This document shows, one piece after another, positions 49,932 through 63,829 of a DNA stretch of 64,000 nt. Both the position numbers and the translations under genes were made by a program. Every line of letters begins with the position of its first letter. Positions within the stretch are counted from its first letter, which is position 1. The notes under the pieces are model-generated. The model was not told where the DNA came from and made no database searches. It saw only the letters and a program-made list of their open reading frames with translations. Location: the NCBI GenBank assembly GCA_965208675.1, contig OZ242351.1, positions 1,440,001-1,504,000 of the forward strand. The letters run 5' to 3'. Origin of the DNA: Candidatus Poribacteria bacterium (GTDB lineage Bacteria; Poribacteria; WGA-4E; PCPOR2b).

Positions 49932-52900
49932 TCATGCCCAATTTTCACACAACGCCTCGGCTTGTTCTAGGACGGTCTCGGCAGCTTTGGCTTGTTTGTC
50001 GGGCGGGTAACCATAGCGCCGTAAGATTCGCTTCACCAATCGGCGCAGGTTGGCGCGGACGCTCTCCTTCATCGTCCAGTCGATGGTCACATTGTTGCGG
50101 ACGGTTTTTACGAGTTCCGTCGCTATTGTGCACAGGGTCTCATCTCCCAGCACCTGCACGGCACTATCGTTGGTTTCAAGCGCGTCGTAGAATGCCAATT
50201 CATCGCTCGTTAGCCCCAACTCCTCGCCGCGGTCACGCGCCTGACGCAACTCCTTCGCCGTTTGAATAAGTTGCTCGATTACCTGCGCGGCTTCTATCGT
50301 CCGGTTTTGATAGGCGCGAATCGAGCGTTCCAGCATTTCTGCGAACGACCGCGCTTGTACAACGTTTTGCCGCGAGTGGGTTTTGATTTCATCGTTTAGC
50401 AGCTTGTCCAGAAGTTCGACCGCGAGGTTTCTTTGTGGCAAATTGCGCACCTCTGCCAAGAATTCGTCGGAAAGAATTGAGATGTCCGGCTTCTCTAATC
50501 CCGCGGCGGCAAAGATGTCTACTACCCCTTCAGGAACGACCGCCTTGGATACCAACTGCTTGACGGCGAGTTCTGCCGCCTCGGACTGGGACTCCTCTCT
50601 AGCCGTCAGTTTTGCCAAGACACCTCGCACCGCTTGGAAAAACGCGACATCGTCCCGTATCTTGATTGCGCTTTCGTGCGGTACGACTAGCGAAAAGGCT
50701 TTGGCGAGCGCAGCAACCTCTTTCAGTAGACGGGTTTTGCCATCTTCCAAACCCAAGATGTGTTCTTGGGCGGCGGGGAGCAGTCTGAGACGTTCCTCGG
50801 CGTTTCCGTCAATCCACGACGACCAATCGAACGCATGAAACAACCCGGAGCAGATTTCGTACTTTTCCAGCATTATAGCAATCGCTTCAGCTTTATTGAG
50901 GGAGGGCTTGCCCTTTCCGCCGTTGTCCGTATAGTTAGTTAAAGCCTGCTTTAGATGGTAACCAATTCCGATGTAGTCTACAATTAGACCGCCGGGTTTT
51001 TCGCCGAATACGCGATTGACGCGCGCGATGGCTTGCATCAGGGCGTGACCTCGCATCGGCTTATCAACATACATAGTGTGAAGACTCGGCGCGTCAAAGC
51101 CGGTCAGCCACATGTCGCGGACGATTACAAATCTCAACGGGTCATCAGGGTTTTTAAATCGAACTGCCAGTTCTTCGCGCCGCGATTTGTTGCGGATATG
51201 CGGCTGCCACGACTCGTCCTCCGACGCCTCGCCCGTCATTACAACCTTTATGAATCCCTGCTTGTCATCTTCACCATGCCAATTCGGACGTTTTGCGACA
51301 ATGGCGTTGTAAAGATCAACACAGATTCGGCGGCTCATACAGACCACCATCGCCTTGCCGTCCATTGCATCCAATCGCTCTCCGAAATGCGTGATGATAT
51401 CATCGGCTACTAGACCCACACGCTTCTCCGTTCCGACCAGCGCTTCAAGCTGAGCCCATTTGGATTTGAGTCTCTCCTTATGCCTTTCCTCCTCTCCTTC
51501 GGTCACCTCCTCAAATTCTGGGTCAACATGAGGTTTCTCGTTCTCATCCAACTCAATTTTGGCGAGTCGGCTCTCGTAATAGATTGGGACGGTGGCGCCG
51601 TCTTCAACTGCTCGTTGTATATCGTAGATGCTGATGTAGTTTCCGAAGACGTTTCGGGTGTCACGGTCGGTCCCCTCAATGGGGGTGCCGGTGAAACCGA
51701 TAAATGATGCGTTCGGAAGTGCGTCGCGCATGTGACGGGCGAATCCATCTATAAAATCGTACTGGCTGCGATGGGCTTCGTCCGCTATGACAACGATGTT
51801 TCGCCGGTCAGAAAGTTTTGGGAATCGACGTTCTTCATCTTTAGGAAAAAACTTCTGTACTGTGGTAAAGACCACGCCGCCTGAAGCCACTTTCAGGAGT
51901 TCGCGCAGATGTCCTCTGTCCTTCGCTTGAACAGGTATTTGCCGCAAGAGCTGGTTACATCTAGCGAACGTGCCGAACAGTTGGTCGTCCAAGTCGTTGC
52001 GGTCGGTGATAACCACCAATGTCGGGTTTTGCATTTCCGGACGCAGGATAATGCTACCGGCATAAAATGCCATAGTCAAGCTCTTGCCCGACCCTTGTGT
52101 GTGCCAGATGACGCCGCAACGTCTGTCCCCGTCCGGACGCGACGCTTTCACGGTAGTGTCAACGGCGGCGCTAACAGCGTGGAATTGGTGATAACCGGCG
52201 ATTTTCTTGGCAATCGTATCGCCGCCCATTTCCTCAAAGACAATAAAGTGCTTGAGATAGTTCAGGAACCGCTTCTTGTCGAAGAGTCCCTTGATTGTCA
52301 CCTCCAGTTCCAGATCGGACGATGCGGCTTCGGTTTCTCCCTCAATTGTCCGCCACGGCATGAACCGTTCCTTATCTGCGGTCAAAGCGCCAACGCGGGC
52401 TTCCAGCCCGTCAGAGATGACCAGCGCCTCGTTGTACGTGAACAGCCGCGGAATTTCCTGCTTGTAGGTCTGAAGTTGGCGAAATGCTGACCAGACAGTG
52501 GCATTTTCGTCGGTCGGGCTTTTGAGTTCAATCACGCCTAGCGGAATACCATTGATAAACAGCACGATGTCCGGACGCCGTTCGGTTGCCCCCATCACAG
52601 TGAACTGATTAACCGCTAACCAGTCGTTGTTTTCGGGGTTCCCAAAATCCACCAATCGCACGCGGTCTCCACGAATAGTGCCATCTGAACCCCGATATTC
52701 GACCTCCACACTATCAACCAACATTAAGTGAAACGTCCGATTGTTTTGAACCGGTGAGGGAGAGTTCGGAGAAATCACTCGTTGAACGGCTTCTTCCTGA
52801 CATTCGGCGGGGATGTTCGGATTCAGGCGAGCAACCGCATCGCGCAGACGCTGTGTCAACACCACGTCATCGTAGCTTGAACGTTCGGCACTAGGCATCT

Positions 52901-53003
52901 CAGGAGCAATGTCAGGACCGTGTAGGACGGAATACTCCATACCCGCTAGCCAATCCATTGCCGTTTGTTCGACATCGGATTCGTAAATTGTAATGGGATT
53001 CAT
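49932..53003 (-). CDS. hsdR: Type I restriction enzyme R subunit
   Basis: [16 protein letters not shown] nuclease motif, [21 protein letters not shown] and MWLTGFDAP. Confidence 0.95.
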
Positions 53004-53081
53004 GGTATTGCCTTAAAGCGAGGGCAGTCTGTTGGGACTTCTAAATCGCTTCCAAAATCTTATTGCAAACATTTTGAATCA

Positions 53082-54146
53082 TCATTGCTCCGTCGTTTGC
53101 TGTTGAGTGTAGCAAGCAACAAAATCGCTACTGTCAATATCCGGCTGTCCTTGGCGTGCATAATACGAAGAAAAGCGCGATACAATATCCTTTACGAAAG
53201 GAGGCGATATCTGAATTGAAGGTATTTCAAACTTATCGTCGAATTCATCTATTGCGAGCGAATGCAGTTTTCTGAAATTGAGAACTCCACCCTCAAAAAA
53301 AACAGTTGGCGGTAGCCAATGAAAATATTGGTGCTTGTTTTTCACAAGACTCTCGACACGGTCTTTTTTCCTACTTCCTTTAAGTGCATCGCTCATGCTT
53401 TCGATGTCAACCAAGAGAATTTGCTCTGTGTTAGATCTGCCGTTTTCACCTCTGACTACAAGGTCGCACGCTGGACTCAAAATCACAAACGGACGATCGG
53501 TTGTCTTATCTTTTACAATACTCCCGGTGGTGATATTGTCCGACATCGGTGGATGGAGGTAAACCTCCTCTGGAAAACACCGATCTTCACCTTCCTCAAG
53601 CAGTTCAAACAAGTGGTTTAGAGCGTATCGGAGGAGCGCCCTTTCAGTGCGCGCCGAATCTTCCTTACCATAAGAAACCCACGTTGCCAACTGTGGAAGA
53701 AGGTTCTTCAGAAAGACTTGGGTTAGGTGAATCTCAATTTCTCCTCGACCTCCCATTATTCGAGTGAGTCCTGTATCAAAGATCTTTTGAAACAAGAGCA
53801 AATCGGATTCATATGTAGATTCGTCACGCGTGCGTTTCTTAATCACCGAAGGATGATCGTCCACGGAATCAAGGAAAGCTGTGACAAAAATGACCGGTAT
53901 ACGGGTAAATGGGAGGCCTAGTTGGTGTAATAATTCATTCCCACCTTTTTTATCAAAACCCAACCACAAATCAATTATGGCACCATCAAAAGAACCATCA
54001 ATATTGTTCAAAGCCGCCGAAATGTCAGCAAAAATTTCGTACTCGACTTTTGAATTGTATTTTTCATTGAAAAACTCAACAGAATCTTCAAATAATCGTT
54101 GTTGATCTTCAGCATCCTCAACAAGCAGAATTTTCATCGTATTCAC
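53082..54146 (-). CDS. Response-regulator receiver domain fused to a putative PemK/MazF-like C-terminal domain
   Basis: ILLVED, AIIDLWL (phospho-acceptor Asp) and IFVTA; C-terminal GSIV...RPFVILSP...RFSSYYARQG. Confidence 0.75.
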   Translation of the reverse strand: MNTMKILLVEDAEDQQRLFEDSVEFFNEKYNSKVEYEIFADISAALNNIDGSFDGAIIDLWLGFDKKGGNELLHQLGLPFTRIPVIFVTAFLDSVDDHPSVIKKRTRDESTYESDLLLFQKIFDTGLTRIMGGRGEIEIHLTQVFLKNLLPQLATWVSYGKEDSARTERALLRYALNHLFELLEEGEDRCFPEEVYLHPPMSDNITTGSIVKDKTTDRPFVILSPACDLVVRGENGRSNTEQILLVDIESMSDALKGSRKKDRVESLVKNKHQYFHWLPPTVFFEGGVLNFRKLHSLAIDEFDDKFEIPSIQISPPFVKDIVSRFSSYYARQGQPDIDSSDFVACYTQQQTTEQ

Positions 54147-56302
54147 CCTTGTTTACCGTTTTTAGGTTGGAGTCTGAAATAAGCCCCATCATTTGACTCA
54201 AATGCTTTTAACTCAAGGCCATTTCTTTCTGCGGCTTCACCAGCTATGGTTAGTCCTAGACCGGTACCGTTAGGTTTGGTCGAAAATTGAGGTTCAAAGA
54301 TTATTTCACTCGCAATGTGGCTTGGTTCGATCCCAGGGCCAGTGTCACGATAGTCAATATGTACTAGCGAATCACGGTCAGTCAGAAGTGTAACGGTTAT
54401 GTTTCGTTTGGAGTTTTTTTTCTGGTTAATCCAATAGAGACTATTGTCGATGAGATTTGTAAATATTGCGTAGATATCTTGGGACCAAAAGGGGAACTTG
54501 AAATTGTCGGGTCCTATAATGTCAACAGATACCTTTTGCGTTTTCATTTCTCCTTCAAAGATGGACAAAGTGCCATTAATAGCTTTCTTCAAGTCCAAAT
54601 GTTTTTTTGCGCCTCGTTTTCCCGCGGCGAGCGGATCCAGCCGACGAAACAAGTGCACAAAGAACTCCATATTCTCCAATACGCCGGTAGCGATTTCCTC
54701 AAGTTTCACAATAGTATTGAAATCCCGGTTTTTTTGAAAGGAGTTTACCCAAGATTTTAGATGTGGTATTCGATTTTGAAAATAACTTAATGGCCGCCTG
54801 CCTTCATGGAGGATGACGTTCACGATTTTCCCAAGTGTGGCTTGACCCTGATATATGGCAACTGCTTGCCTAATTTCATCGGCACCTTTGTTTTTTTCTT
54901 CTTGTACTTGGATAACGATTTGATCGATCATTTCGGCCGTAGACTCATCAACGCCCCGACTTTTGAGTTGCCTTTGTATTTTTGACCTCATTGGATCGAA
55001 GGAAAAGAGGCGCCCTAACTTGTAGTCTACCTTTCGAGAAAATCTGCCTAGCCCTACTTTGTCCCTGTAATCGAAACGTAAAACTTCAAGCTCCATTATT
55101 ACCGCTGTGGTCACTTTACGTAGCAGATCGAACGCCTCATTTTCCCTCAATCCATCACGTGCGCTCTTTTCAATCAAACCAGAATCATTTTCGGATTCTA
55201 TTTGCACGTACCCTATTGCCTGATCGCTGCCGATGCACATGGACGGGTTTTGCACGCGTCTCGAATTGAGTTTTAACCAGTCATATTCGGCATCGCCCAG
55301 CGGACGAATTCGGAATCCACTTCGGTAAACACCGATACCGTTGTATTTGTTCAAAAGCTGTCTAGCTTCAAGTTTTCCGACTGAATTGCCCAAGTCGTTG
55401 GTGGAACTGCGCTGCACTAAGGCATCGATGGATTCTTTATCTCTATCATACACTCGAATATCAAAATCAAGATTACCACAACCTGTTGGTTTTTTGAAAT
55501 CAAACCGTAGCTCTTGTTTAACGGTGTTTCGAGCTTTCTGTGAAGAATATTCCAAGGTGCCTTTACCATCTATCCCGATATTACCTGCAATTTTATAGTC
55601 GTAGAGTTCAAAGAGTGGAAACGGTTCAACAATTTCCTCAAAATCCTGAACCCCAACAAAACCCCTAACCGTAAGATTAATTCGAAATTCGTCATTTGTA
55701 AAAATACTGCCTACTGGTGATTTCAGTTTCTTCAACTCAAATTGGAGCTTCTGAAAGCGGTCTTTGTTCCACTCCACAACACGCTTTGAATTTCCATGCA
55801 TAGTTAACCTAGTTCCAGATGGTCGAGTGGTTTTCTGTGTTTCAATGAGTATTTCTACATCATCAAGATATTCGGCTGTATGAAAGTCATTCCATTCAAG
55901 ACAGACGGTTGTTTTTTCACCGTCAGCGTTAACGGTCTCAAGAAGTAGATCGTCACCAAGGATGGACGAAGCATAGCGCCCTATACCTTTTCGGCCCTGC
56001 AATGTCCTACCGAGTGGACTCGTGCCCCTGTCACGTTTGTCCCGGGTTGAGGGCACCATCCATTTATGAATAACGTCGTTCCTAGACATGCCGTGACCAT
56101 TATCGTCAACCACGATTGCATACGTTTTCCCGTTGGAAGATGCTTTAAATTCAATATTTACATAAGTAGCATCAGCATCGTAGGCGTTTTTCACTAACTC
56201 GACTACTGCGGCATGATTGTCCTGAATTAGGTCTTCCCCTATCGTTAGAATGTGTCGTCCCGCCGGTCTAATTTTGTAGGTTGTGTGAGTGTTCACATCC
56301 AA
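54143..56302 (-). CDS. MORC/GHKL ATPase-histidine kinase fusion
   Basis: N-terminal ELVKNAYDADA, DDNGHGM, GRKGIGR and GT motifs; C-terminal HEGRRPL, NLIDNS, DTGPGI, FEPQFSTK and GTGLGL. No TM segments. Confidence 0.85.
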   Translation of the reverse strand: MDVNTHTTYKIRPAGRHILTIGEDLIQDNHAAVVELVKNAYDADATYVNIEFKASSNGKTYAIVVDDNGHGMSRNDVIHKWMVPSTRDKRDRGTSPLGRTLQGRKGIGRYASSILGDDLLLETVNADGEKTTVCLEWNDFHTAEYLDDVEILIETQKTTRPSGTRLTMHGNSKRVVEWNKDRFQKLQFELKKLKSPVGSIFTNDEFRINLTVRGFVGVQDFEEIVEPFPLFELYDYKIAGNIGIDGKGTLEYSSQKARNTVKQELRFDFKKPTGCGNLDFDIRVYDRDKESIDALVQRSSTNDLGNSVGKLEARQLLNKYNGIGVYRSGFRIRPLGDAEYDWLKLNSRRVQNPSMCIGSDQAIGYVQIESENDSGLIEKSARDGLRENEAFDLLRKVTTAVIMELEVLRFDYRDKVGLGRFSRKVDYKLGRLFSFDPMRSKIQRQLKSRGVDESTAEMIDQIVIQVQEEKNKGADEIRQAVAIYQGQATLGKIVNVILHEGRRPLSYFQNRIPHLKSWVNSFQKNRDFNTIVKLEEIATGVLENMEFFVHLFRRLDPLAAGKRGAKKHLDLKKAINGTLSIFEGEMKTQKVSVDIIGPDNFKFPFWSQDIYAIFTNLIDNSLYWINQKKNSKRNITVTLLTDRDSLVHIDYRDTGPGIEPSHIASEIIFEPQFSTKPNGTGLGLTIAGEAAERNGLELKAFESNDGAYFRLQPKNGKQG

Positions 56303-57555
56303 TTCTCCCTTAACTTTTCGGCTATTTTCTGTGATAGAAGAACAGGCACCGCGTCGCCGATTTGGCGAAATACAGGAGTTCTTCTGGGTTTTCCGCCACG
56401 ACTTTCAAAGTAGTAGTCGTCTGGAAACGTCTGTAATCTAGCCGCTTCTCTAGGCGTGAGAGAACGATTCTGATTTATGTCAGGATGAATATAATAGTGG
56501 CCGTCGTTCGCTAAGTGTGCGACAATAGTATGGCAGAATGGTAGATTTTGAGCAACTACTTTAAATCGATCGACGAATGACTTACGCTGACGATGAGTTT
56601 TTAAGCGCTCTGGCAGATCATTGTAATTCAGTCGAGCCATTTTATCATTCCAGAGTTCTACGGCAATTCTGTAGATTTCAAGATCCTGTTGAGAGTTCGG
56701 CCGTGCTTGGTGCCATGTGACTGGGTAATTATCACAACGTATACCAACGTCGTACATCCACACCCCTTTGTAAGGTGCGACGCTACATGGTCCTGCGACG
56801 CCTTGCCCCGAATTAATCGCTGGGAGATCGGCTAGAATTTCTTCCACAAGAACTGTGGATACACATTTTTTCGGTTCTGGATAGAAACCTTCGGACTTTC
56901 CTCGTTTTCCAACAATTATCGTCCTTTTTCGATTCTGCGGGACGCCGTAATCTTTCGCGCACAGAGTCTGAACTTCCGTCGCATAGCCGCATTTACGGAA
57001 CTCCTGCCGCATAAGGTTCAAGTATGAGACTCCTCGCTCATTCTTCGCGGACAGAAGACCGGTTACGTTTTCGAACAAAAAATGAACCGGCCGGTATCTC
57101 TCTAAGAATCTAGCGTAAAACACATACAAATAATTCCGTTTATCATTTTTCATTCGGTCGCGTAAACGAGAGCGTCCTACTAGCGAATAAGCTTGACAGG
57201 GGGGACCGCCGATAATCAAGTCTAGTTTCTTACCGTTTAGCAAACTATCAAGCCGATCAAAGATACTTTGAAGGCTTACGTCAGAAATGTGTGAATTGAT
57301 AACAGAATCTAACGCCGTTCTCGGCACTTGTGAATATAAATCCGCTCGGCTAATGTGTCGGTTGAGATATTTGTAATATAACTCCCCATTCCCACATCCA
57401 TTTAGCCACCGAAATGCCATGCGTGTTCGCAGTGTGTAACATGCAGCTAAATCCATCTCAACATGGGCAATTGGATTAAATCCAGCGCGCATGAACCCCT
57501 CCGAGAGCCCGCCCGCACCTGCAAACAAATCGAGATAATTCAATGTCCTGCTCAT
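56293..57555 (-). CDS. dcm: DNA (cytosine-5) methyltransferase
   Basis: DLFAGAGG, GGPPCQ, FENV, PQNRKR, REAARLQTFPD and IGDAVP motifs. Confidence 0.92.
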   Translation of the reverse strand: MSRTLNYLDLFAGAGGLSEGFMRAGFNPIAHVEMDLAACYTLRTRMAFRWLNGCGNGELYYKYLNRHISRADLYSQVPRTALDSVINSHISDVSLQSIFDRLDSLLNGKKLDLIIGGPPCQAYSLVGRSRLRDRMKNDKRNYLYVFYARFLERYRPVHFLFENVTGLLSAKNERGVSYLNLMRQEFRKCGYATEVQTLCAKDYGVPQNRKRTIIVGKRGKSEGFYPEPKKCVSTVLVEEILADLPAINSGQGVAGPCSVAPYKGVWMYDVGIRCDNYPVTWHQARPNSQQDLEIYRIAVELWNDKMARLNYNDLPERLKTHRQRKSFVDRFKVVAQNLPFCHTIVAHLANDGHYYIHPDINQNRSLTPREAARLQTFPDDYYFESRGGKPRRTPVFRQIGDAVPVLLSQKIAEKLRENWM

Positions 57556-57904
57556 TATAGTAACTCCAGCATTCGAGATTCAATTTGTAAAATGAAAATA
57601 TACATGAGAAAATTTATCAATCTAGGAAAAGTAACGTGCTGAACCTAAGACACAAAAAAAGATTCCTTCAACACAAGGAAGTCTCAGTAATACCCTTCCT
57701 GAGAGTGTTTACGCAAGATACTTTTGAATTGAGTAGAGCATTACCGCCGTGGCATGTCTAATGCCAATTTAGGGGCTCTCGTCACTCCCAATAAAATTAT
57801 GACATTAATTCTAAAACTATCACCTCGTTTCGCACGAATGAATTTCACAAATGAGTTCAATAGACAAATTTTGGCGTTAATACTCTCATGACATCTGGTG
57901 CGAC

Positions 57905-59584
57905 TCAACTACAATCATATAGTCCCTTCTCCGTTCGACGGTCACATGAATCCCCTGATAGCAGTTTTGGTAGTAGAGTGTCGCGCAACTGAGAAAGTGT
58001 GTGTGATTGGTTCTCATTTGCTTCAATCCTAGCAAAAAGCGGATTCACAATTGAATCAAAACGGTGAAGTATCGAATCCGGTGGTAACGCGAATCGATAA
58101 CTAGGAACACCATCTTTGCTCAAATGTAACACCGTTGTGCCCGTTGTATATCCATTAATGTGAGCCTGGAAGGCATGACTTCGAAACAAGCAATAAAGGA
58201 ACCAAACGGAAACCGTTGATTCTAAGGGGCGGATTATTCCCAAATCCAACGATGCAACAAGTGTTTTATATTCACTGCTGGCTTGAACAAGTGCTGGTTT
58301 GCCAATTACCTCCGCTTCTTGTGTCACATCAGTATAGGAAACAACAAGCTCACCCGGGGTGATAACTTGTTCCGGTTTGTATCGTCCAGTATAAGATTTC
58401 AAGCCATCGGGACGGTAGCCACCACCACGCAAAATTGATTTTAGTGTAACCAACGCAGTGTCCGATTCTGTTAATTCGCTACTCTTGTATGAACGCCCTT
58501 TGACTATCTCAACAAGATTACCAATTTGTTCTATCTTCCACCCTTCCGGCATCTTTCCCAACGACGAATCCTGAAATGTAGATGGGAACAGAGCCGCGGA
58601 TTCGGCATCCATGCCAACGGGTTCTCGTCCCTCCGTTTTTGCCTGCACGGGATCAAAGTCCACAAACCACGACTTGAAGATAGCTCGTGCCATCGCCTCC
58701 AGCGTCTCGTTCATCTGCCGGTTGAGTTCCATTTTGTCGTCGAGCGAGCCGAGGATGTGGGCAATGCGGCGTTGTTGCTCAATGGGCGGAAGCGAAAGTT
58801 CAAACAAACCTATCGAATCAGGCGCAACTCTTTGTCGTCCTGTAGTACCTTGCATGGAATGAACCGCAAATGCTCTGAGTCTTGGATCTCTTGCTAAATA
58901 GTAAATGAACAGATTATCTGTTTTACCTTCGATTCCGGAGAGCACGATAAATTCAGTCGATCCATGACCAACTTCATTAGCTTTTAAGCAATTTACATAC
59001 GCAGTTTTACCGTTTTCGAGACAAGGAGTGATGCGCGCCAAAAGCGTATCTTCATTCTGAAATCGTGTGGCAGATCCATTGAATTCCTTAAATGAGTGTG
59101 AAGCAATTTCCCGTCTGAATGCTTCAATATCTTTCATAGAAACATGAGGTGCGGTTTTTCCTCTATGAAGCGTCCGGCGTGGGTTGATACTAACAACGTT
59201 ACCCAGTCTCACGAGCTCCCAGCTGTTATTCTCTTGAGTCCAACTTTGACGACTGTACTTCGATTCAGCAGTTTTTTTGCCTAATTTCTGTTCTTGTATC
59301 ACTTCATATCCTACAACAATCACGTTCTTGAAACTATCTGAAATCGCGTGCCAATCCTGAAAATCAACCCGAATTGGAAGGTCGGATTCCTCGAATGCCT
59401 CTTGCAATTTGCGCATTCGTCTCCGACTTAGCCGTTCATTGCCCACAACCGCAAGATCGAGATCGGAGTAATCTTTTGCTGTCCATTTGACTCGCGACCC
59501 GTAGGCGCGGACTTCACAATCGGGAACATGCTCAGCTAGTATGTGTTGAATTGTTTCAAGATATTTGGGATTGAGGTCAATCAT
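57905..59584 (-). CDS. hsdS: MNT (minimal nucleotidyltransferase) domain fused to type I RM specificity subunit
   Basis: First ~97 aa contain YGSRVKWTAKDYSDLDL (GSx10DxD). The rest is a two-TRD HsdS with LPP.EQQRRIAHILGSLDDK.ELN and LRDTLLPKLLSG. Confidence 0.88.
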   Translation of the reverse strand: MIDLNPKYLETIQHILAEHVPDCEVRAYGSRVKWTAKDYSDLDLAVVGNERLSRRRMRKLQEAFEESDLPIRVDFQDWHAISDSFKNVIVVGYEVIQEQKLGKKTAESKYSRQSWTQENNSWELVRLGNVVSINPRRTLHRGKTAPHVSMKDIEAFRREIASHSFKEFNGSATRFQNEDTLLARITPCLENGKTAYVNCLKANEVGHGSTEFIVLSGIEGKTDNLFIYYLARDPRLRAFAVHSMQGTTGRQRVAPDSIGLFELSLPPIEQQRRIAHILGSLDDKMELNRQMNETLEAMARAIFKSWFVDFDPVQAKTEGREPVGMDAESAALFPSTFQDSSLGKMPEGWKIEQIGNLVEIVKGRSYKSSELTESDTALVTLKSILRGGGYRPDGLKSYTGRYKPEQVITPGELVVSYTDVTQEAEVIGKPALVQASSEYKTLVASLDLGIIRPLESTVSVWFLYCLFRSHAFQAHINGYTTGTTVLHLSKDGVPSYRFALPPDSILHRFDSIVNPLFARIEANENQSHTLSQLRDTLLPKLLSGDSCDRRTEKGLYDCS

Positions 59585-59990
59585 TATGCGCCTCTAGCGT
59601 GATGAAAAGTTGTCTTGCGTCATGTGCAAACTTGGTCGCATCCTCAAATACACTTTGAGCAGTATCTTCATTGTAAACATGAGAGGTCTGGTTGCGTCCG
59701 AAGTGATAATCCATCCAAAGTTCTACATCGGTGATGAGGCGATTTTCTGCCGCTAGGCAATATAGTTTCCGACGCGTAACACCGTCAACGTAGGTGTTAC
59801 CGACATTCTCTTTAAGCCATCGCTGTATCATTTTCCAACAAAGTTCGTACACCACCTCAAAATTATGAATGACTCCGGCGCGCACCGTGTCCTGCAAATC
59901 TTCCTCCCAAGTCTCCATATTACTCGCTGTTCTGATAGAACGTTCCAAAGCGCCCATAGCTTGTGCCAAACTGTCCAATTGTAAACTCAT
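59577..59990 (-). CDS. HEPN-domain protein (HI0074/HepT-like toxin)
   Basis: AGVIHNFEVVYELCWK and RNQTSHVY (Rx4HxY). Stop overlaps the MNT start (ATGATTGA). Confidence 0.88.
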   Translation of the reverse strand: MSLQLDSLAQAMGALERSIRTASNMETWEEDLQDTVRAGVIHNFEVVYELCWKMIQRWLKENVGNTYVDGVTRRKLYCLAAENRLITDVELWMDYHFGRNQTSHVYNEDTAQSVFEDATKFAHDARQLFITLEAHND

Positions 59991-60198
59991 TGTTTATCCC
60001 TATACTCTCCACCGTTTCCAAGTTCGCTCAATGGATTCTCCAAGGCCGGTTGAACAGAGTGAACCCTTCCGACTGACCTTCTAAATCTAGTCTTCTGACC
60101 GCTGGCAGCCAAATGCATCATTGTGATAGAAAACCATTCGGGTGTTCAATTGCCTTATCGCTACGGTAGTTGGCGTCTAAACTCCTCGTCACCGAAAC

Positions 60199-61809
60199 TC
60201 ATGAACTATCTTGAAATCCGACTATTTTTAAACTCTCGGCAATAGCCTCGTCCTGCCGTCTTGCCTCCGCCATCTGATCCGCCAGTCGATTCGTCAGTCG
60301 GGTTATTTTCTCCTCAAACGGCTCATCGTCATCCTCTTGAGCTTCGGCGCCGACGTAACGACCGGGGGTCAAGACACTCCCGTGTTCGTGTATCTCCTCT
60401 AAAGTCGCGCTTTTGCAGAAGCCCGGGATATCCGAATATTCGCCTGCTGCTTCAGCGCCACGCCAAGCGTGGTAGGTATCGGCGATGCGGGTTATGTCTG
60501 CTTCGCTCAGTTCGCGGTGTACACGGTCAATCATGGATCCGAGTTTCCGGGCGTCAATGAATAATGTTTCGTTTGCACGTTCCCGGAAGCGCGGGGCTTT
60601 TTTGTCTCGCGCCAGAAACCAGAGACACACGGGGATTTGCGTGGAATAAAACAGTTGACCCGGCATGGCGACCATGCAATCAACCAAGTCTGAATCAACG
60701 ATATTTTTGCGTATTTCGCCTTCAGTGGACGTGTTAGAACTCATTGAGCCGTTCGCCAATACGAATCCGGCGATGCCGTTGGGCGCGAGGTGATAGATGA
60801 AGTGCTGCACCCACGCAAAGTTGGCGTTGCCAACTGGCGGCGCCCCATACACCCAACGTTTATCATAACGCAATCGCTCACCGCCCCAGTCACTGCTATT
60901 AAACGGCGGATTAGCTAGAATGTAATCAACTTTCAGGTCGGGGTGAAGTTCTCGGTGGAAACTGTCTGCGTGCTCCTCTCCAAGATTGGCGTCAATGGCG
61001 CGGATGGCGAGATTCATCTTCGCCAACTGCCACGTGGTCGGGTTGGACTCTTGCCCGAAAATTGAGATGTCGTCGCGCCCTCCGCCGTGCGCTTCAACGA
61101 AGGCTTCGCTCTGGACGAACATGCCGCCCGAACCGCAACATGGATCGTACACCCGTCCCTTGTACGGCGCCAGCATCTCAACGAGCACCTGCACAACACA
61201 GCGGGGGGTGTAGAATTGACCGCCCCTTTTGCCTTCGGCACTAGCGAATTGTGAGAGGAAATATTCGTAGACTCGACCGAGTATATCTTTTGAGCGATTC
61301 TCCTCTTCTCCCAAACCGATTGTGCCGATTAGGTCAACTAATTCCCCGAGGCGGCGCTTGTCGAGCATCGGACGGGCGTAGTTTTTAGGAAGCACACCCT
61401 TGAGGCTCGGGTTTTCGCCTTCAATCGCAATCATGGCATTATCAATCAGGGTTCCAATTTCCGGATGCTTGGCGCTGCCTTGCAGATAAGACCAGCGGGC
61501 TTCCTTAGGGACGTAGAAGATGTTTTCTGCCAAAAATTCATCGCGGTCATCGGCAAACTGGACACGGGCAGTTTCGTCTTTGAGGTAGAGCTCACTCTCA
61601 GGATTCGCAGATTCTGAAAGCAGCAAATTGTACCTTTCCTCGAAGGTGTCTGAAATGTACTTGAGGAAGATTAACCCCAACACCACATGTTTGTATTCGG
61701 CGGCGTCAAGGTTATTGCGGAGTTTGTCCGCCGCTTGGTACAGGGTCGCTTCGAAGCCCAGCGCCGCGCCGTTATTCTTGGATTTTGTGTTTCGTTTCTT
61801 TTTCGCCAT
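60199..61809 (-). CDS. hsdM: Type I RM modification subunit
   Basis: [19 protein letters not shown] and FVLANGS motifs. Start could be 61809, 61845 or 61875. Confidence 0.95.
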
Positions 61810-62058
61810 AGTCTGTTTTTTTATTTCCGCTTTCTCGCTTGGCATCTTCACTACATTGGAGACACACCGATTCAACTTTCATGATAACCCATCTCACGGA
61901 GATTTTCAAGTCGGATTAACCAAAAACAGGAAAGACACCGCCGAACACCTTCTGGGCATATTATGGTGTTTCCGACGGAGGAAAATAGACATCGGTTGAA
62001 GATTTTGATAAGAACCGCGTTCTATTTTTTGGGCTTTAGATTAGTATACAATTCATGG

Positions 62059-62365: not shown

Positions 62366-63829
62366 TTACTTTTCCGCAATCGCGAAAAGTACATTGCGGC
62401 TGGCAATGTATAATACGCTGTCCTTTGCGACTGGAGTGGTGTAGACCGCGCTGCCCATGTTGACCTCAAAAATCAGCTCCATCTTTTTGCCGGCTTTTAG
62501 GACGGCAACATCGCCGTCTTCATCGCCGATATAGACCTTCCCGTCGGCAACAAACGGCGACCCCCAAATCGCGGCATACGTGTCATACGTCCAGTAATGT
62601 TCACCGGTGTGGGCATTCAAGCAGTACACAAATCCGCTCAAATCCGCCGTATAGAGTAAATCGCCATCAATGGCTACCGTGGACATCGTCCGGTTATAAT
62701 CTTGATTCCCATAATGCCAGACAGCGTTGCTCTCGGTGACGTCGCCTTCGCCCGTGGCGTCAATTGCCCATAGATGTCCAACGCCCTCGCCGTGTTCCGG
62801 GTCTTGACCTACACCGACGTAAATGCGGTCCGCATAAATGACGGGGGTCGATATTATGCTGTTGCGTGTGCCTCTACCGCCGAGTTCCCAAACAGAATCC
62901 TTCGGGTTGCAGTCGAATTTCCAAATCAGTTCCCCTGTTTCAGGCTCAAGCGAGTAGATCCATCCGTCACCGCCCGGCATGATAACCTGCGGTTTTCCGG
63001 CGATTACCCCGTAGGCGGGATTGGACCATTGGCCGTGAAGAATGTCCTCTCCGGGCGATGCGTCTTCCCAGACAAGTTCGCCTGTTTTTTTGTTTAGGGC
63101 GATGAAGCTAGGTGCAAACGGCGAAGGGATATGGATGTGCCCTTCATCAACACCGTTGCTGGTAATCACAAAAAGCAGGTCTCCGGCGCCAACCGGGGAA
63201 CAGGTGGCGAGGTTGTGAGGGAACACGTCGAGTTCATCCATCATGTCGTATATCCAGATTATATCGCCGTCAATGCCGCTAGCATCGGTTTCTTCCACGT
63301 AAGGGCCATCATTTTCGGCATCCAAGAATCCTTCCGTGTCGATGCAGACTACCTCGCAGCGGTTTGAGACGTAGTACAGCTTATCTCCTTCAATGTAAGG
63401 CGCTGAGCAGACGCCCTGCTGCGGCCAGTCATTGACTCTACCCGACGGGAGTTTAGTATGTGTAGATTGCCAGAGAAACTCGCCGTCCGATTCTCGGAAC
63501 GCCATGATTACGCCGCGGTCGCCGGTGAGTTTTGGATTGCGCAATCCTTGGTTGTTCGTTCCGACGAACACCTTGCCACCGATGAGAATAGGTCCCGCAT
63601 AGGTTTGCGAGCCGAGAGACGCCCTCCACTTGATGTTTAACCCGGTCTCGGGATCCCACTTTTCCGGTATATTCCGCTCGTCCGATACCAGATTTCGAGA
63701 CGGCGTGAACCCCCACATACTTGTCTCTTCAGCGCGAGCATCAAATGTAGCAAAAAGGATTATTCCAATTATAATGCGGCAAATGCTGATGTCCATTGAT
63801 TTTAAAATTCTCCTGGTGTTCATATTCAT
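62366..63829 (-). CDS. PQQ-binding-like beta-propeller protein (BamB-like repeats)
   Basis: Signal peptide; repeated A.d..TGE..W and SP.v.dG.vy.g units. Confidence 0.85.
   Translation of the reverse strand: MNMNTRRILKSMDISICRIIIGIILFATFDARAEETSMWGFTPSRNLVSDERNIPEKWDPETGLNIKWRASLGSQTYAGPILIGGKVFVGTNNQGLRNPKLTGDRGVIMAFRESDGEFLWQSTHTKLPSGRVNDWPQQGVCSAPYIEGDKLYYVSNRCEVVCIDTEGFLDAENDGPYVEETDASGIDGDIIWIYDMMDELDVFPHNLATCSPVGAGDLLFVITSNGVDEGHIHIPSPFAPSFIALNKKTGELVWEDASPGEDILHGQWSNPAYGVIAGKPQVIMPGGDGWIYSLEPETGELIWKFDCNPKDSVWELGGRGTRNSIISTPVIYADRIYVGVGQDPEHGEGVGHLWAIDATGEGDVTESNAVWHYGNQDYNRTMSTVAIDGDLLYTADLSGFVYCLNAHTGEHYWTYDTYAAIWGSPFVADGKVYIGDEDGDVAVLKAGKKMELIFEVNMGSAVYTTPVAKDSVLYIASRNVLFAIAEK

Follow-up and report, generated by a model that had tools for sequence, protein, structure and literature searches.

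The window analysed here is the whole stretch of 64,000 nucleotides at positions 1,440,001 to 1,504,000 of contig OZ242351.1 (Candidatus Poribacteria bacterium, of a sponge-associated lineage not yet in culture; assembly GCA_965208675.1). It carries on its minus strand three overlapping genes, located at positions 53082 to 57555 between the hsdS and hsdR genes of a type I restriction-modification (R-M) operon, which code for a C5 DNA cytosine methyltransferase, a soluble ATPase/histidine kinase and a response regulator whose C-terminal domain is predicted to have the fold of the MazF and CcdB toxins. We judge the chances about even that this triad is a conserved mobile conflict module inside the type I operon, in which phosphotransfer from His499 of the kinase to Asp59 of the regulator controls the toxin-like domain. 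In broader terms, the module is probably a signalling-based defence or addiction system. The class is already known; the fold assignment, the link to a published family and the corrected candidate catalytic residues are new. No report of a MazF/CcdB fold for these regulators was found in the literature outside subscription journals and bioRxiv supplements. The three genes and the domains of the kinase and the regulator are the following.

56293..57555, minus strand: C5 DNA cytosine methyltransferase, 420 amino acids (aa), from Pfam DNA_methylase, PADLOC, TIGR00675 and motifs
54143..56302, minus strand: soluble GHL-ATPase and histidine kinase, 719 aa, from Pfam, profiles, invariant columns and hydropathy
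55778..56218, minus strand: N-terminal GHL (paraMORC/Hsp90-like) ATPase domain of the kinase, residues 29-175, from HATPase_c_3, profiles and Bergerat motifs
54893..55777, minus strand: middle part of the kinase, residues 176-470, conserved, with many invariant columns among 36 homologues
54146..54892, minus strand: histidine kinase core (DHp and CA), residues 471-719, with the phospho-accepting His499 at 54806-54808
53082..54146, minus strand: response regulator with a putative toxin-fold output, 354 aa, from receiver and effector-fold evidence
53775..54146, minus strand: receiver domain of the regulator, residues 1-124, with the phospho-accepting Asp59 at 53970-53972
53577..53774, minus strand: helical hairpin linker, residues 125-190, with the near-invariant motif TGLTRIxGGRGxIE
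53145..53540, minus strand: predicted CcdB/MazF-fold effector domain, residues 203-334, with C227 at 53466-53468 and R331 at 53154-53156

A sequence-only reading of the window, made earlier by a model, had described three overlapping genes with GTGA-type junctions nested between hsdS and hsdR, and the coordinates and both overlaps were verified. At the methylase/kinase junction, the GTG at 56296-56294 overlaps the TGA at 56295-56293, and at the kinase/regulator junction, the GTG at 54146-54144 overlaps the TGA at 54145-54143. The kinase has an alternative start, TTG 56302, with AGGGAG close upstream, and an alternative start of the regulator at ATG 54137 gives a protein of 351 aa, the same length as the database copy.

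Fold and conserved residues of the effector domain

Two alignments were used throughout: A1, of 42 regulator sequences, and A2, of 71 sequences (query residues 125-354 and 70 of 773 cluster representatives). The first model of the full-length regulator was poor over residues 190-354, with a predicted local distance difference test (pLDDT) of 45-85, and its Foldseek search gave receivers only, at probability 1.0. Because of this poor C-terminal half, residues 125-354 were folded alone with a more diverse alignment, which led to a model with a pLDDT of 95.1 and a predicted template modelling (TM) score of 0.84. With this model, all nine Foldseek matches in the PDB at E<=0.001 were MazF-type endoribonucleases, with TM scores of 0.65-0.72 on the target, and the remaining matches below those nine were also MazF, Kid or CptN. 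Independently of Foldseek, VIA-align was run on 48,161 representative chains, of which 11 scored Z>=8, every one of them MazF, Kid or CcdB. The top match was S. aureus MazF (4mzm_A, Z 11.2, root-mean-square deviation (rmsd) 2.9, 104 residues aligned), and CcdB (1vub_A) was aligned over 95 of its 95 residues with Z 10.2 and rmsd 2.5. The type III toxins CptN, AbiQ and ToxN came next with Z 5.2-7.8, and the unrelated rows, at Z of about 5.5 or lower, covered the helical hairpin only. As modelled, residues 203-334 have the CcdB/MazF fold. A homodimer prediction for residues 125-354, run without controls, reached scores of 0.28 and 0.21 for a mark of 0.42, which does not bear on dimerisation either way.

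The conservation pattern of A2 points to a set of likely functional residues, C227, D228, R324 and R331-Q-G-Q-P335. Residues G208, P225, C227, R331, Q332, G333 and P335 are invariant in 71/71 sequences, and D228 (70/71), R324 (67/71) and H276 (64/71) are nearly so.

A separate observation concerns a 571-aa protein, P0140, in which half of a C5 methylase, the N-terminal one (DNA_methylase positions 57-192), runs straight into a hairpin and effector, with no kinase or receiver part. A deletion or an artefact of the assembly may account for it.

Receiver, kinase and methylase, and their published relatives

The receiver of the regulator scored weakly against Pfam (16.9 bits for a cut-off of 30.2), while a divergent relative passed at 37.1 bits. 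A phmmer search of PDB sequences with the single regulator sequence gave nothing meaningful; the family profile matched receivers only, and matched them clearly, with E 6.8e-6 to RcpA. Residues E10, D11, D54, D59 and T89, which include the acidic pocket, are invariant in 42/42 sequences. The receiver of the sequence-only reading is recovered by fold and by family profile, although its Pfam score is below the cut-off. Of the candidate positions for the usual beta5 lysine, K103 and K104 are variable and R105 is present in 40/42 sequences. The hairpin that follows consists of two long helices in the high-confidence model, with G135 invariant and E138 present in 65/71 sequences. No DNA-binding domain was found in the regulator by Pfam.

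The kinase contains two Pfam ATPase domains, HATPase_c_3 (residues 30-142, E 3e-22) and HATPase_c (residues 609-714, E 1e-18). In the N-terminal domain, the Bergerat motifs E35/N39/D42, D67xGxG and G103xKGxGR are invariant in 36/36 homologues. In a profile search of PDB sequences, the best matches for it were HtpG (2.3e-7), then MORC3 (4e-4) and MutL (5e-3). Residues 29-175 also resemble the N-terminus of the BbrUII/HgiDII restriction enzymes (62.9 bits, far under the cut-off of 550) and the PADLOC REase_II profiles. The middle region, of about 300 residues (176-470), had no Pfam match, and its search in the Atlas was uninformative. In the C-terminal core, H499, N616, N620, D653, G655, G657, G679, G681 and G683, which make up the H, N, G1, F and G2 boxes, are invariant in 36/36 homologues, and the profile matches the kinase cores of ZraS, ThkA and FixL with E values from 3e-12 to 3e-11. 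The protein showed no hydrophobic stretch (maximum Kyte-Doolittle 19-residue mean 1.15). The domain matches and conserved columns thus show gene 2 to code for a soluble protein with an ATP-binding GHL-type domain, a conserved middle of about 300 residues and a complete histidine kinase core. The earlier description of a soluble MORC/GHKL ATPase with a complete kinase is borne out in its domains, boxes and solubility; the label MORC appears loose, HtpG being matched ahead of MORC3.

Gene 1, as previously read, is shown by its domain matches and motifs to code for an intact C5 DNA methyltransferase (Pfam DNA_methylase E 1.7e-55; TIGR00675 157 bits). Its translation carries the motifs FAGAGG, PPC (catalytic, residues 118-120), ENV, QNRKR and GDAVPV, and it matches a PADLOC DrmMII-type profile over its full length with 521.7 bits. 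DISARM was considered and rejected, since by PADLOC the methylase alone matches a DISARM profile (DrmMII) and the other six scanned proteins match no component. MADS was rejected as well: HsdM matches mad2 (1.5e-43) and HsdS matches MAD5 weakly (19.1 bits for a cut-off of 400), which is ordinary type I homology.

Proteins of a similar kind have been described by Bellieny-Rabelo et al. 2021 (PMC8011034). The part of that paper available to us describes 644 regions in which a response regulator (RR)-like gene (Response_reg_2, PF19192) lies beside a soluble kinase made of HATPase_c_3, HEF_HK (PF19191) and HATPase_c, with a C5 methylase upstream and often a Vsr gene downstream. The same part relates the HEF_HK kinases to paraMORCs and proposes that they regulate R-M systems, on the basis of gene neighbourhoods and not of experiments; in it, the RR-like proteins have no other known domain identified and the region past the receiver is given without a fold (PMC8011034). 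As far as this description goes, the architecture is the same here: HATPase_c_3, DHp and HATPase_c in a soluble protein, with the RR-like gene adjoining and the C5 methylase upstream.

The Pfam models of the published family did not recognise the genes studied here. PF19192 gave no match for the focal regulator (E<=10), for 8 homologues, for the host genome or for three genomes holding homologues, and PF19191 gave none for the focal kinase or 4 homologues. The PF19192 model worked as a control, being found in 2/300 Gammaproteobacteria, in proteins of 555 and 617 aa. A query with a PF19192 protein gave 557 relatives at E<=0.001, and a profile was built of 30 sequences. The effector region of A2 matched these 30 PF19192 proteins by hhalign with a probability of 95.2% (E 2.6e-8, 136 columns). 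BLASTP against a PF19192 protein showed a shared LSPACDLV motif (E 5e-4), and an RxGxxD motif is also common to both; when A1 was compared by hhalign with only one PF19192 protein (L077), the match did not reach significance (probability 0.86%). The kinase core matched that of the HEF_HK-type neighbour of a PF19192 protein with 97.4% in hhalign. Regulators of the focal lineage are of about 350 aa with a near-canonical receiver, whereas the PF19192 proteins have 555-692 aa. Since the C-terminal regions are homologous and the Pfam models missed the focal proteins, we place the focal lineage as a sister of the PF19192 family, and the MazF/CcdB fold, judging by this sequence homology, should extend to the published family. 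WonAB, found in the literature under 'paraMORC', is an unrelated pair of ABC-ATPase and PD-(D/E)xK proteins and was set aside.

Conservation, neighbourhood and mobility of the module

A survey of one genome per species with A1 as query gave 76 loci; a locus search with the single regulator sequence found no relative. The loci span at least 10 phyla, one archaeon (Methanoperedenaceae) among them, and their taxa include Poribacteria, Chloroflexota, Latescibacterota, Desulfobacterota, Gammaproteobacteria, Chlorobiota, Bacteroidota and Spirochaetota. In 72/76 loci, the gene immediately upstream of the regulator is that of the kinase. Two of the four exceptions (L065 and L072) are at contig starts and the other two (L040 and L071) have N-terminally truncated regulators. 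Upstream of the kinase, the adjoining gene on the same strand is a C5 methylase in 50 of the 69 loci that have room there (the truncated copies of L012 and L044 counted), so the co-occurrence of the triad, proposed as a check by the sequence-only reading, holds in many phyla. The cognate methylases are 52-67% identical across phyla, and therefore the three genes travel together. Downstream of the regulator (72 loci with room), the next gene codes for Vsr in 25 loci, for an N6_N4 methylase with a ResIII helicase after it in 11, for an AAA_21 ATPase in 4 and for HsdR in 3. The kinase-regulator pair keeps 50-70% identity while these R-M neighbours switch type. A third, more divergent lineage in a related genome shows again the order Dcm-kinase-regulator.

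Nesting in a type I operon was observed in 8/76 loci, namely seven Poribacteria with a TIR gene in the methylase slot and L019. In the seven Poribacteria loci (L001, L015, L016, L025, L026, L034 and L075), a TIR-domain protein of about 500 aa is encoded between hsdS and the kinase, and an AAA_21/AAA_15 ATPase gene often lies between the regulator and hsdR. As the TIR gene occupies the methylase slot, the pair can partner TIR in place of Dcm. L019, a locus in a metagenome-assembled genome of Bacteroidales and so in another phylum, has the order HsdM-HsdS-Dcm-kinase-regulator-HsdR of the focal locus, with 61% identity for HsdR and 64% for HsdM; either the composite moves as a single unit or the same slot was reused.

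The regulator is present in 4/20 relatives and in 0/3 genomes of the same genus, as a single copy in the host genome, and was found on 46 plasmid records, 42 of them conjugative. One of these plasmids, pCC21NB01-51K of Campylobacter coli (L110), carries homologues of both the regulator and its kinase, at 28% identity, and a convergent dcm gene, next to HicAB, VapD and an AAA and DUF4435 pair. Like distant homologues are present on conjugative plasmids in 40 further Campylobacter plasmid records. The module behaves as accessory, horizontally mobile DNA.

The other genes of the type I operon in the window are the following.

60199..61875, minus strand: HsdM, type I methyltransferase (Pfam N6_Mtase E 1e-107 and HsdM_N; PADLOC MTase_I 757.7 bits)
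59577..59990, minus strand: HepT-like nucleotidyltransferase substrate-binding protein (NTase_sub_bind E 2.5e-31; TIGR01987 66 bits)
57905..59584, minus strand: HsdS with an N-terminal MNT-type nucleotidyltransferase domain (Methylase_S, Polbeta/NTP_transf_2; Specificity_I profiles; MntA 28.2 bits, under the cut-off of 60)
49932..53003, minus strand: HsdR, type I restriction subunit (PADLOC REase_I 1148 bits; Pfam HSDR_N, SWI2_SNF2 and T1RH-like_C)

The hsdR gene begins 78 nucleotides downstream of the regulator gene. The triad had been described as visibly AT-richer than its flanks. The GC content is indeed 0.39-0.47 across positions 53000-60000 and 0.51-0.56 in hsdR and hsdM; the low-GC block is thus not confined to the triad and takes in hsdS and the HepT-like gene. 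In agreement with the sequence-only reading, no restriction nuclease and no Vsr is encoded within the three-gene module, and no Vsr match was found across the host genome (single contig, 96.4% complete) despite the C5 methylase of the triad. A scan of promoters and terminators remained at chance level, with 13 promoter-like sites compared to 9.6 ± 3.0 and 5 terminator-like sites compared to 4.7 ± 2.2.

Two further observations were made in the window. The HepT-like gene and hsdS overlap by 8 nucleotides, and the first 100 or so residues of HsdS form an MNT-type nucleotidyltransferase, so that together they look like a HepT/MntA-type toxin-antitoxin pair with the antitoxin half fused to the type I specificity subunit. 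This fusion is not unique, since one PADLOC Specificity_I profile (PDLC03138) spans that N-terminus. The other is a protein of 487 aa encoded at 62366-63829 on the minus strand; it starts with a hydrophobic segment, contains Gly/Trp-rich blocks in repeats and looks by eye like a secreted beta-propeller.

Proposed function and comparison with known systems

The usual place of the kinase-regulator pair, after a C5 methylase and often before Vsr, is the restriction enzyme slot of methylase-nuclease-Vsr cassettes. Because of this slot and of the GHKL-like ATPase, we read the kinase as a putative sensor of the state of DNA, whose output would be phosphorylation of Asp59 and not cleavage. The GHL module would monitor DNA, either for the methylation state at the sites of the methylase or for a disturbance caused by a phage, and this would switch the kinase, the phosphate moving from His499 to Asp59. 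Phosphorylation would then free or assemble the MazF/CcdB-fold domain, leading to arrest of the cell or of the invader, and the outcome would be abortive infection or 'restriction by signalling'. According to the list of open reading frames (ORFs), no small ORF lies among the kinase gene, the regulator gene and hsdR, which means that there is no adjacent antitoxin gene, and the receiver and hairpin might for this reason act as a built-in inhibitor. The most likely target of the effector, going by the model, is RNA, since most of its structural neighbours are RNases; yet CcdB is tied with them, and the invariant Cys-Asp/Arg set is unlike either.

Several results weigh against this proposal. The effector is tied to MazF by fold alone, and a fold is not a function: CcdB (Z 10.2) stands level with MazF (Z 11.2). 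No Pfam match to PemK_toxin (PF02452) or CcdB was obtained for the regulator at E<=10, and a profile comparison by hhalign with 19 natural PemK proteins, taken from related genomes, gave a probability of 0.87% (E 0.063). The MazF-like C-terminal domain claimed by the sequence-only reading was thus recovered as a fold, by Foldseek and VIA-align, and not at the level of sequence, and its MazF-like RNase effector keeps the MazF-type fold, with 'RNase' as one option and not a finding because CcdB matches about equally. The same reading had taken the Arg of its RPFV motif as the MazF-type catalytic residue; this residue, R218, is Arg in only 1/42 sequences of A1 and 6/71 of A2, its equivalence with the MazF Arg being taken from the earlier alignment and from secondary structure and not from superposition. 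In E. coli MazF, the catalytic Arg before strand 2 is R29. As this Arg is not conserved, the chemistry of the effector is probably not that of MazF itself.

Other points on the same side come from the genes around the pair. An adjacent C5 methylase is missing in 19/69 loci with room, so that the methylase is not obligatory, and in 6/69 its slot is filled by a TIR-domain gene. In three loci (L002, L012 and L076), the cognate methylase is down to fragments of 73-164 residues beside a full-length kinase and regulator with all motifs, and the other C5 methylases of these genomes are only distant (34-39% identity). The earlier idea that loss of the methylase triggers killing cannot therefore be general; sensing may concern something besides the mark of this methylase, or these three copies may be silenced. 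No match was found among 50,697 phage records. A PADLOC 2.0 scan, a check that had been suggested for an existing name, gave no profile match and named no system for the kinase or the regulator, the presence of Detocs profiles in that release not being ascertained. Finally, in the part of the Ambrosia report available to us, a kinase-regulator pair in an R-M-like cluster can act via transcription (10.1101/2025.09.30.679545).

This last case leads to the rival reading in which the module is a regulatory two-component system that senses infection or the state of DNA and controls how the neighbouring R-M genes, of type I in this window and of type III or Dcm/Vsr at other loci, are expressed or how active they are, the C-terminal domain being a nucleic acid- or protein-binding output and not a toxin. 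Ambrosia, as far as its available description goes, is a tested cluster of methylase, HATPase/kinase, receiver (REC) regulator and HNH nuclease with infection-induced genes and a required REC Asp, and R-M regulation was proposed for the HEF_HK modules as cited above; moreover, the module is always beside R-M genes (type I in 8 loci, the N6_N4 methylase/ResIII pair in 11). We nevertheless consider this reading unlikely. The Ambrosia regulator is described as bearing a wHTH (winged helix-turn-helix), whereas Pfam found no DNA-binding domain in the focal regulator, whose output folds like the MazF/CcdB toxins, and the persistence of the pair through changes of R-M type is more in keeping with an autonomous unit than with a dedicated regulator.

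A role in addiction or stabilisation, in which the methylase and a phospho-controlled toxin would hold a mobile element by post-segregational killing with no phage role, is in our view quite unlikely as an explanation, even with the plasmid records, the HicAB and VapD neighbours, the patchy distribution among relatives and the toxin-type effector fold in its favour. The three genomes with an intact pair beside a decayed methylase indicate that loss of the methylase is survivable, and no labile antitoxin is encoded. The least probable of the three rivals, and one we regard as improbable, is a DNA-directed restriction in which the effector, either a poison of the CcdB kind or a new nuclease, would hit DNA or gyrase and restrict unmethylated DNA with no RNA cleavage. 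CcdB is among its top structural matches, the pair fills the restriction enzyme slot between Dcm and Vsr, and the MazF catalytic residues are not conserved; set against this, most of the top matches are RNases, and a motif typical of nucleases was not recognised. To our knowledge, the invariant Cys-Asp/Arg set is unlike CcdB and unlike any known DNase.

The proposal of a phosphotransfer-controlled conflict module can be widened, more tentatively and with some doubt, to the published relatives. The focal lineage and the Response_reg_2 proteins could form a single 'restriction by signalling' superfamily, in which a GHL ATPase would replace the recognition function of a nuclease and a kinase its catalysis, so that DNA methylation status would be converted to abortive infection by a phospho-activated toxin with a new Cys-Asp/Arg site; it could plug into type I, type III and TIR partners. 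This superfamily would be made up of 773 clusters at 50% identity for the focal lineage and of the 557 relatives retrieved with the PF19192 protein. Should the proposed mechanism be right, it would be a second and far more widespread example, after Detocs, of immunity that runs on His-Asp phosphotransfer, and no earlier one would be linked to DNA methylation. The functionally blank Response_reg_2 proteins would gain a concrete output in the form of a MazF/CcdB-fold domain in which Cys-Asp and an RQGQP motif are invariant, and a signalling partner is suggested for the prokaryotic paraMORC ATPases, a question since their first description. The family is missed by PF19191, PF19192 and PADLOC 2.0, and annotation pipelines give only 'response regulator' or 'sensor histidine kinase'.

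Among the tested systems in which defence uses His-Asp signalling, Detocs (DtcA/DtcB/DtcC) is described, in the part of the report available to us, as a TPR kinase with a buffer receiver and an effector that joins a receiver to PNP, with loss of defence in His and Asp mutants and an effector that is toxic alone (10.1101/2023.01.24.525353). From this description, the two share a kinase that phosphorylates a receiver fused to a cell-arresting effector, swappable effectors and the lack of a DNA-binding output. Detocs differs by its TPR sensor, its stand-alone 'buffer' receiver and its effectors, which are described as mostly PNP ATP-nucleosidases, whereas the focal module has a GHL ATPase sensor, a predicted MazF/CcdB-fold effector and a methylase partner; no stand-alone receiver ORF and no PNP domain were found in it by the ORF list and Pfam. 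Ambrosia (AbrR, AbrA-D) comprises, in its available description, an N6 methylase, an HSP90-like ATPase/kinase, a REC-wHTH regulator, an HNH nuclease and an XRE regulator; the REC Asp mutant loses defence and the genes of the cluster are induced on infection (10.1101/2025.09.30.679545). Like the focal module, this tested defence cluster combines a methylase for DNA with a REC regulator and an ATPase/histidine kinase of the HSP90-like kind. Compared by description and not by sequence, its N6-adenine methylase, HNH nuclease, XRE regulator and wHTH output are absent from the focal module.

MazF/Kid/PemK and CcdB have the same fold as the modelled effector over about 100 of 105-115 residues (Z 8.4-11.2); unlike them, the focal effector is fused behind a receiver and a hairpin, has no antitoxin gene and shows another invariant set (C227, D228, R331-Q-G-Q-P). 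The GHKL-type restriction enzymes BbrUII/HgiDII (NF050001) carry a HATPase_c_3 ATPase at their N-terminus and are encoded beside a C5 methylase and Vsr, whereas the focal protein has a histidine kinase transmitter in place of the nuclease part. In position, a parallel is PrrC, an anticodon nuclease that acts as a latent, RNA-targeting suicide effector and whose gene lies between hsdS and hsdR in the type Ic EcoprrI operon. This ABC-ATPase/HEPN-like protein is restrained by the R-M complex itself with no kinase relay, and the resemblance is one of position and logic only. By analogy with PrrC, the recurrent placing of the module between hsdS and hsdR hints that its trigger may instead be a guard relationship with the type I enzyme.

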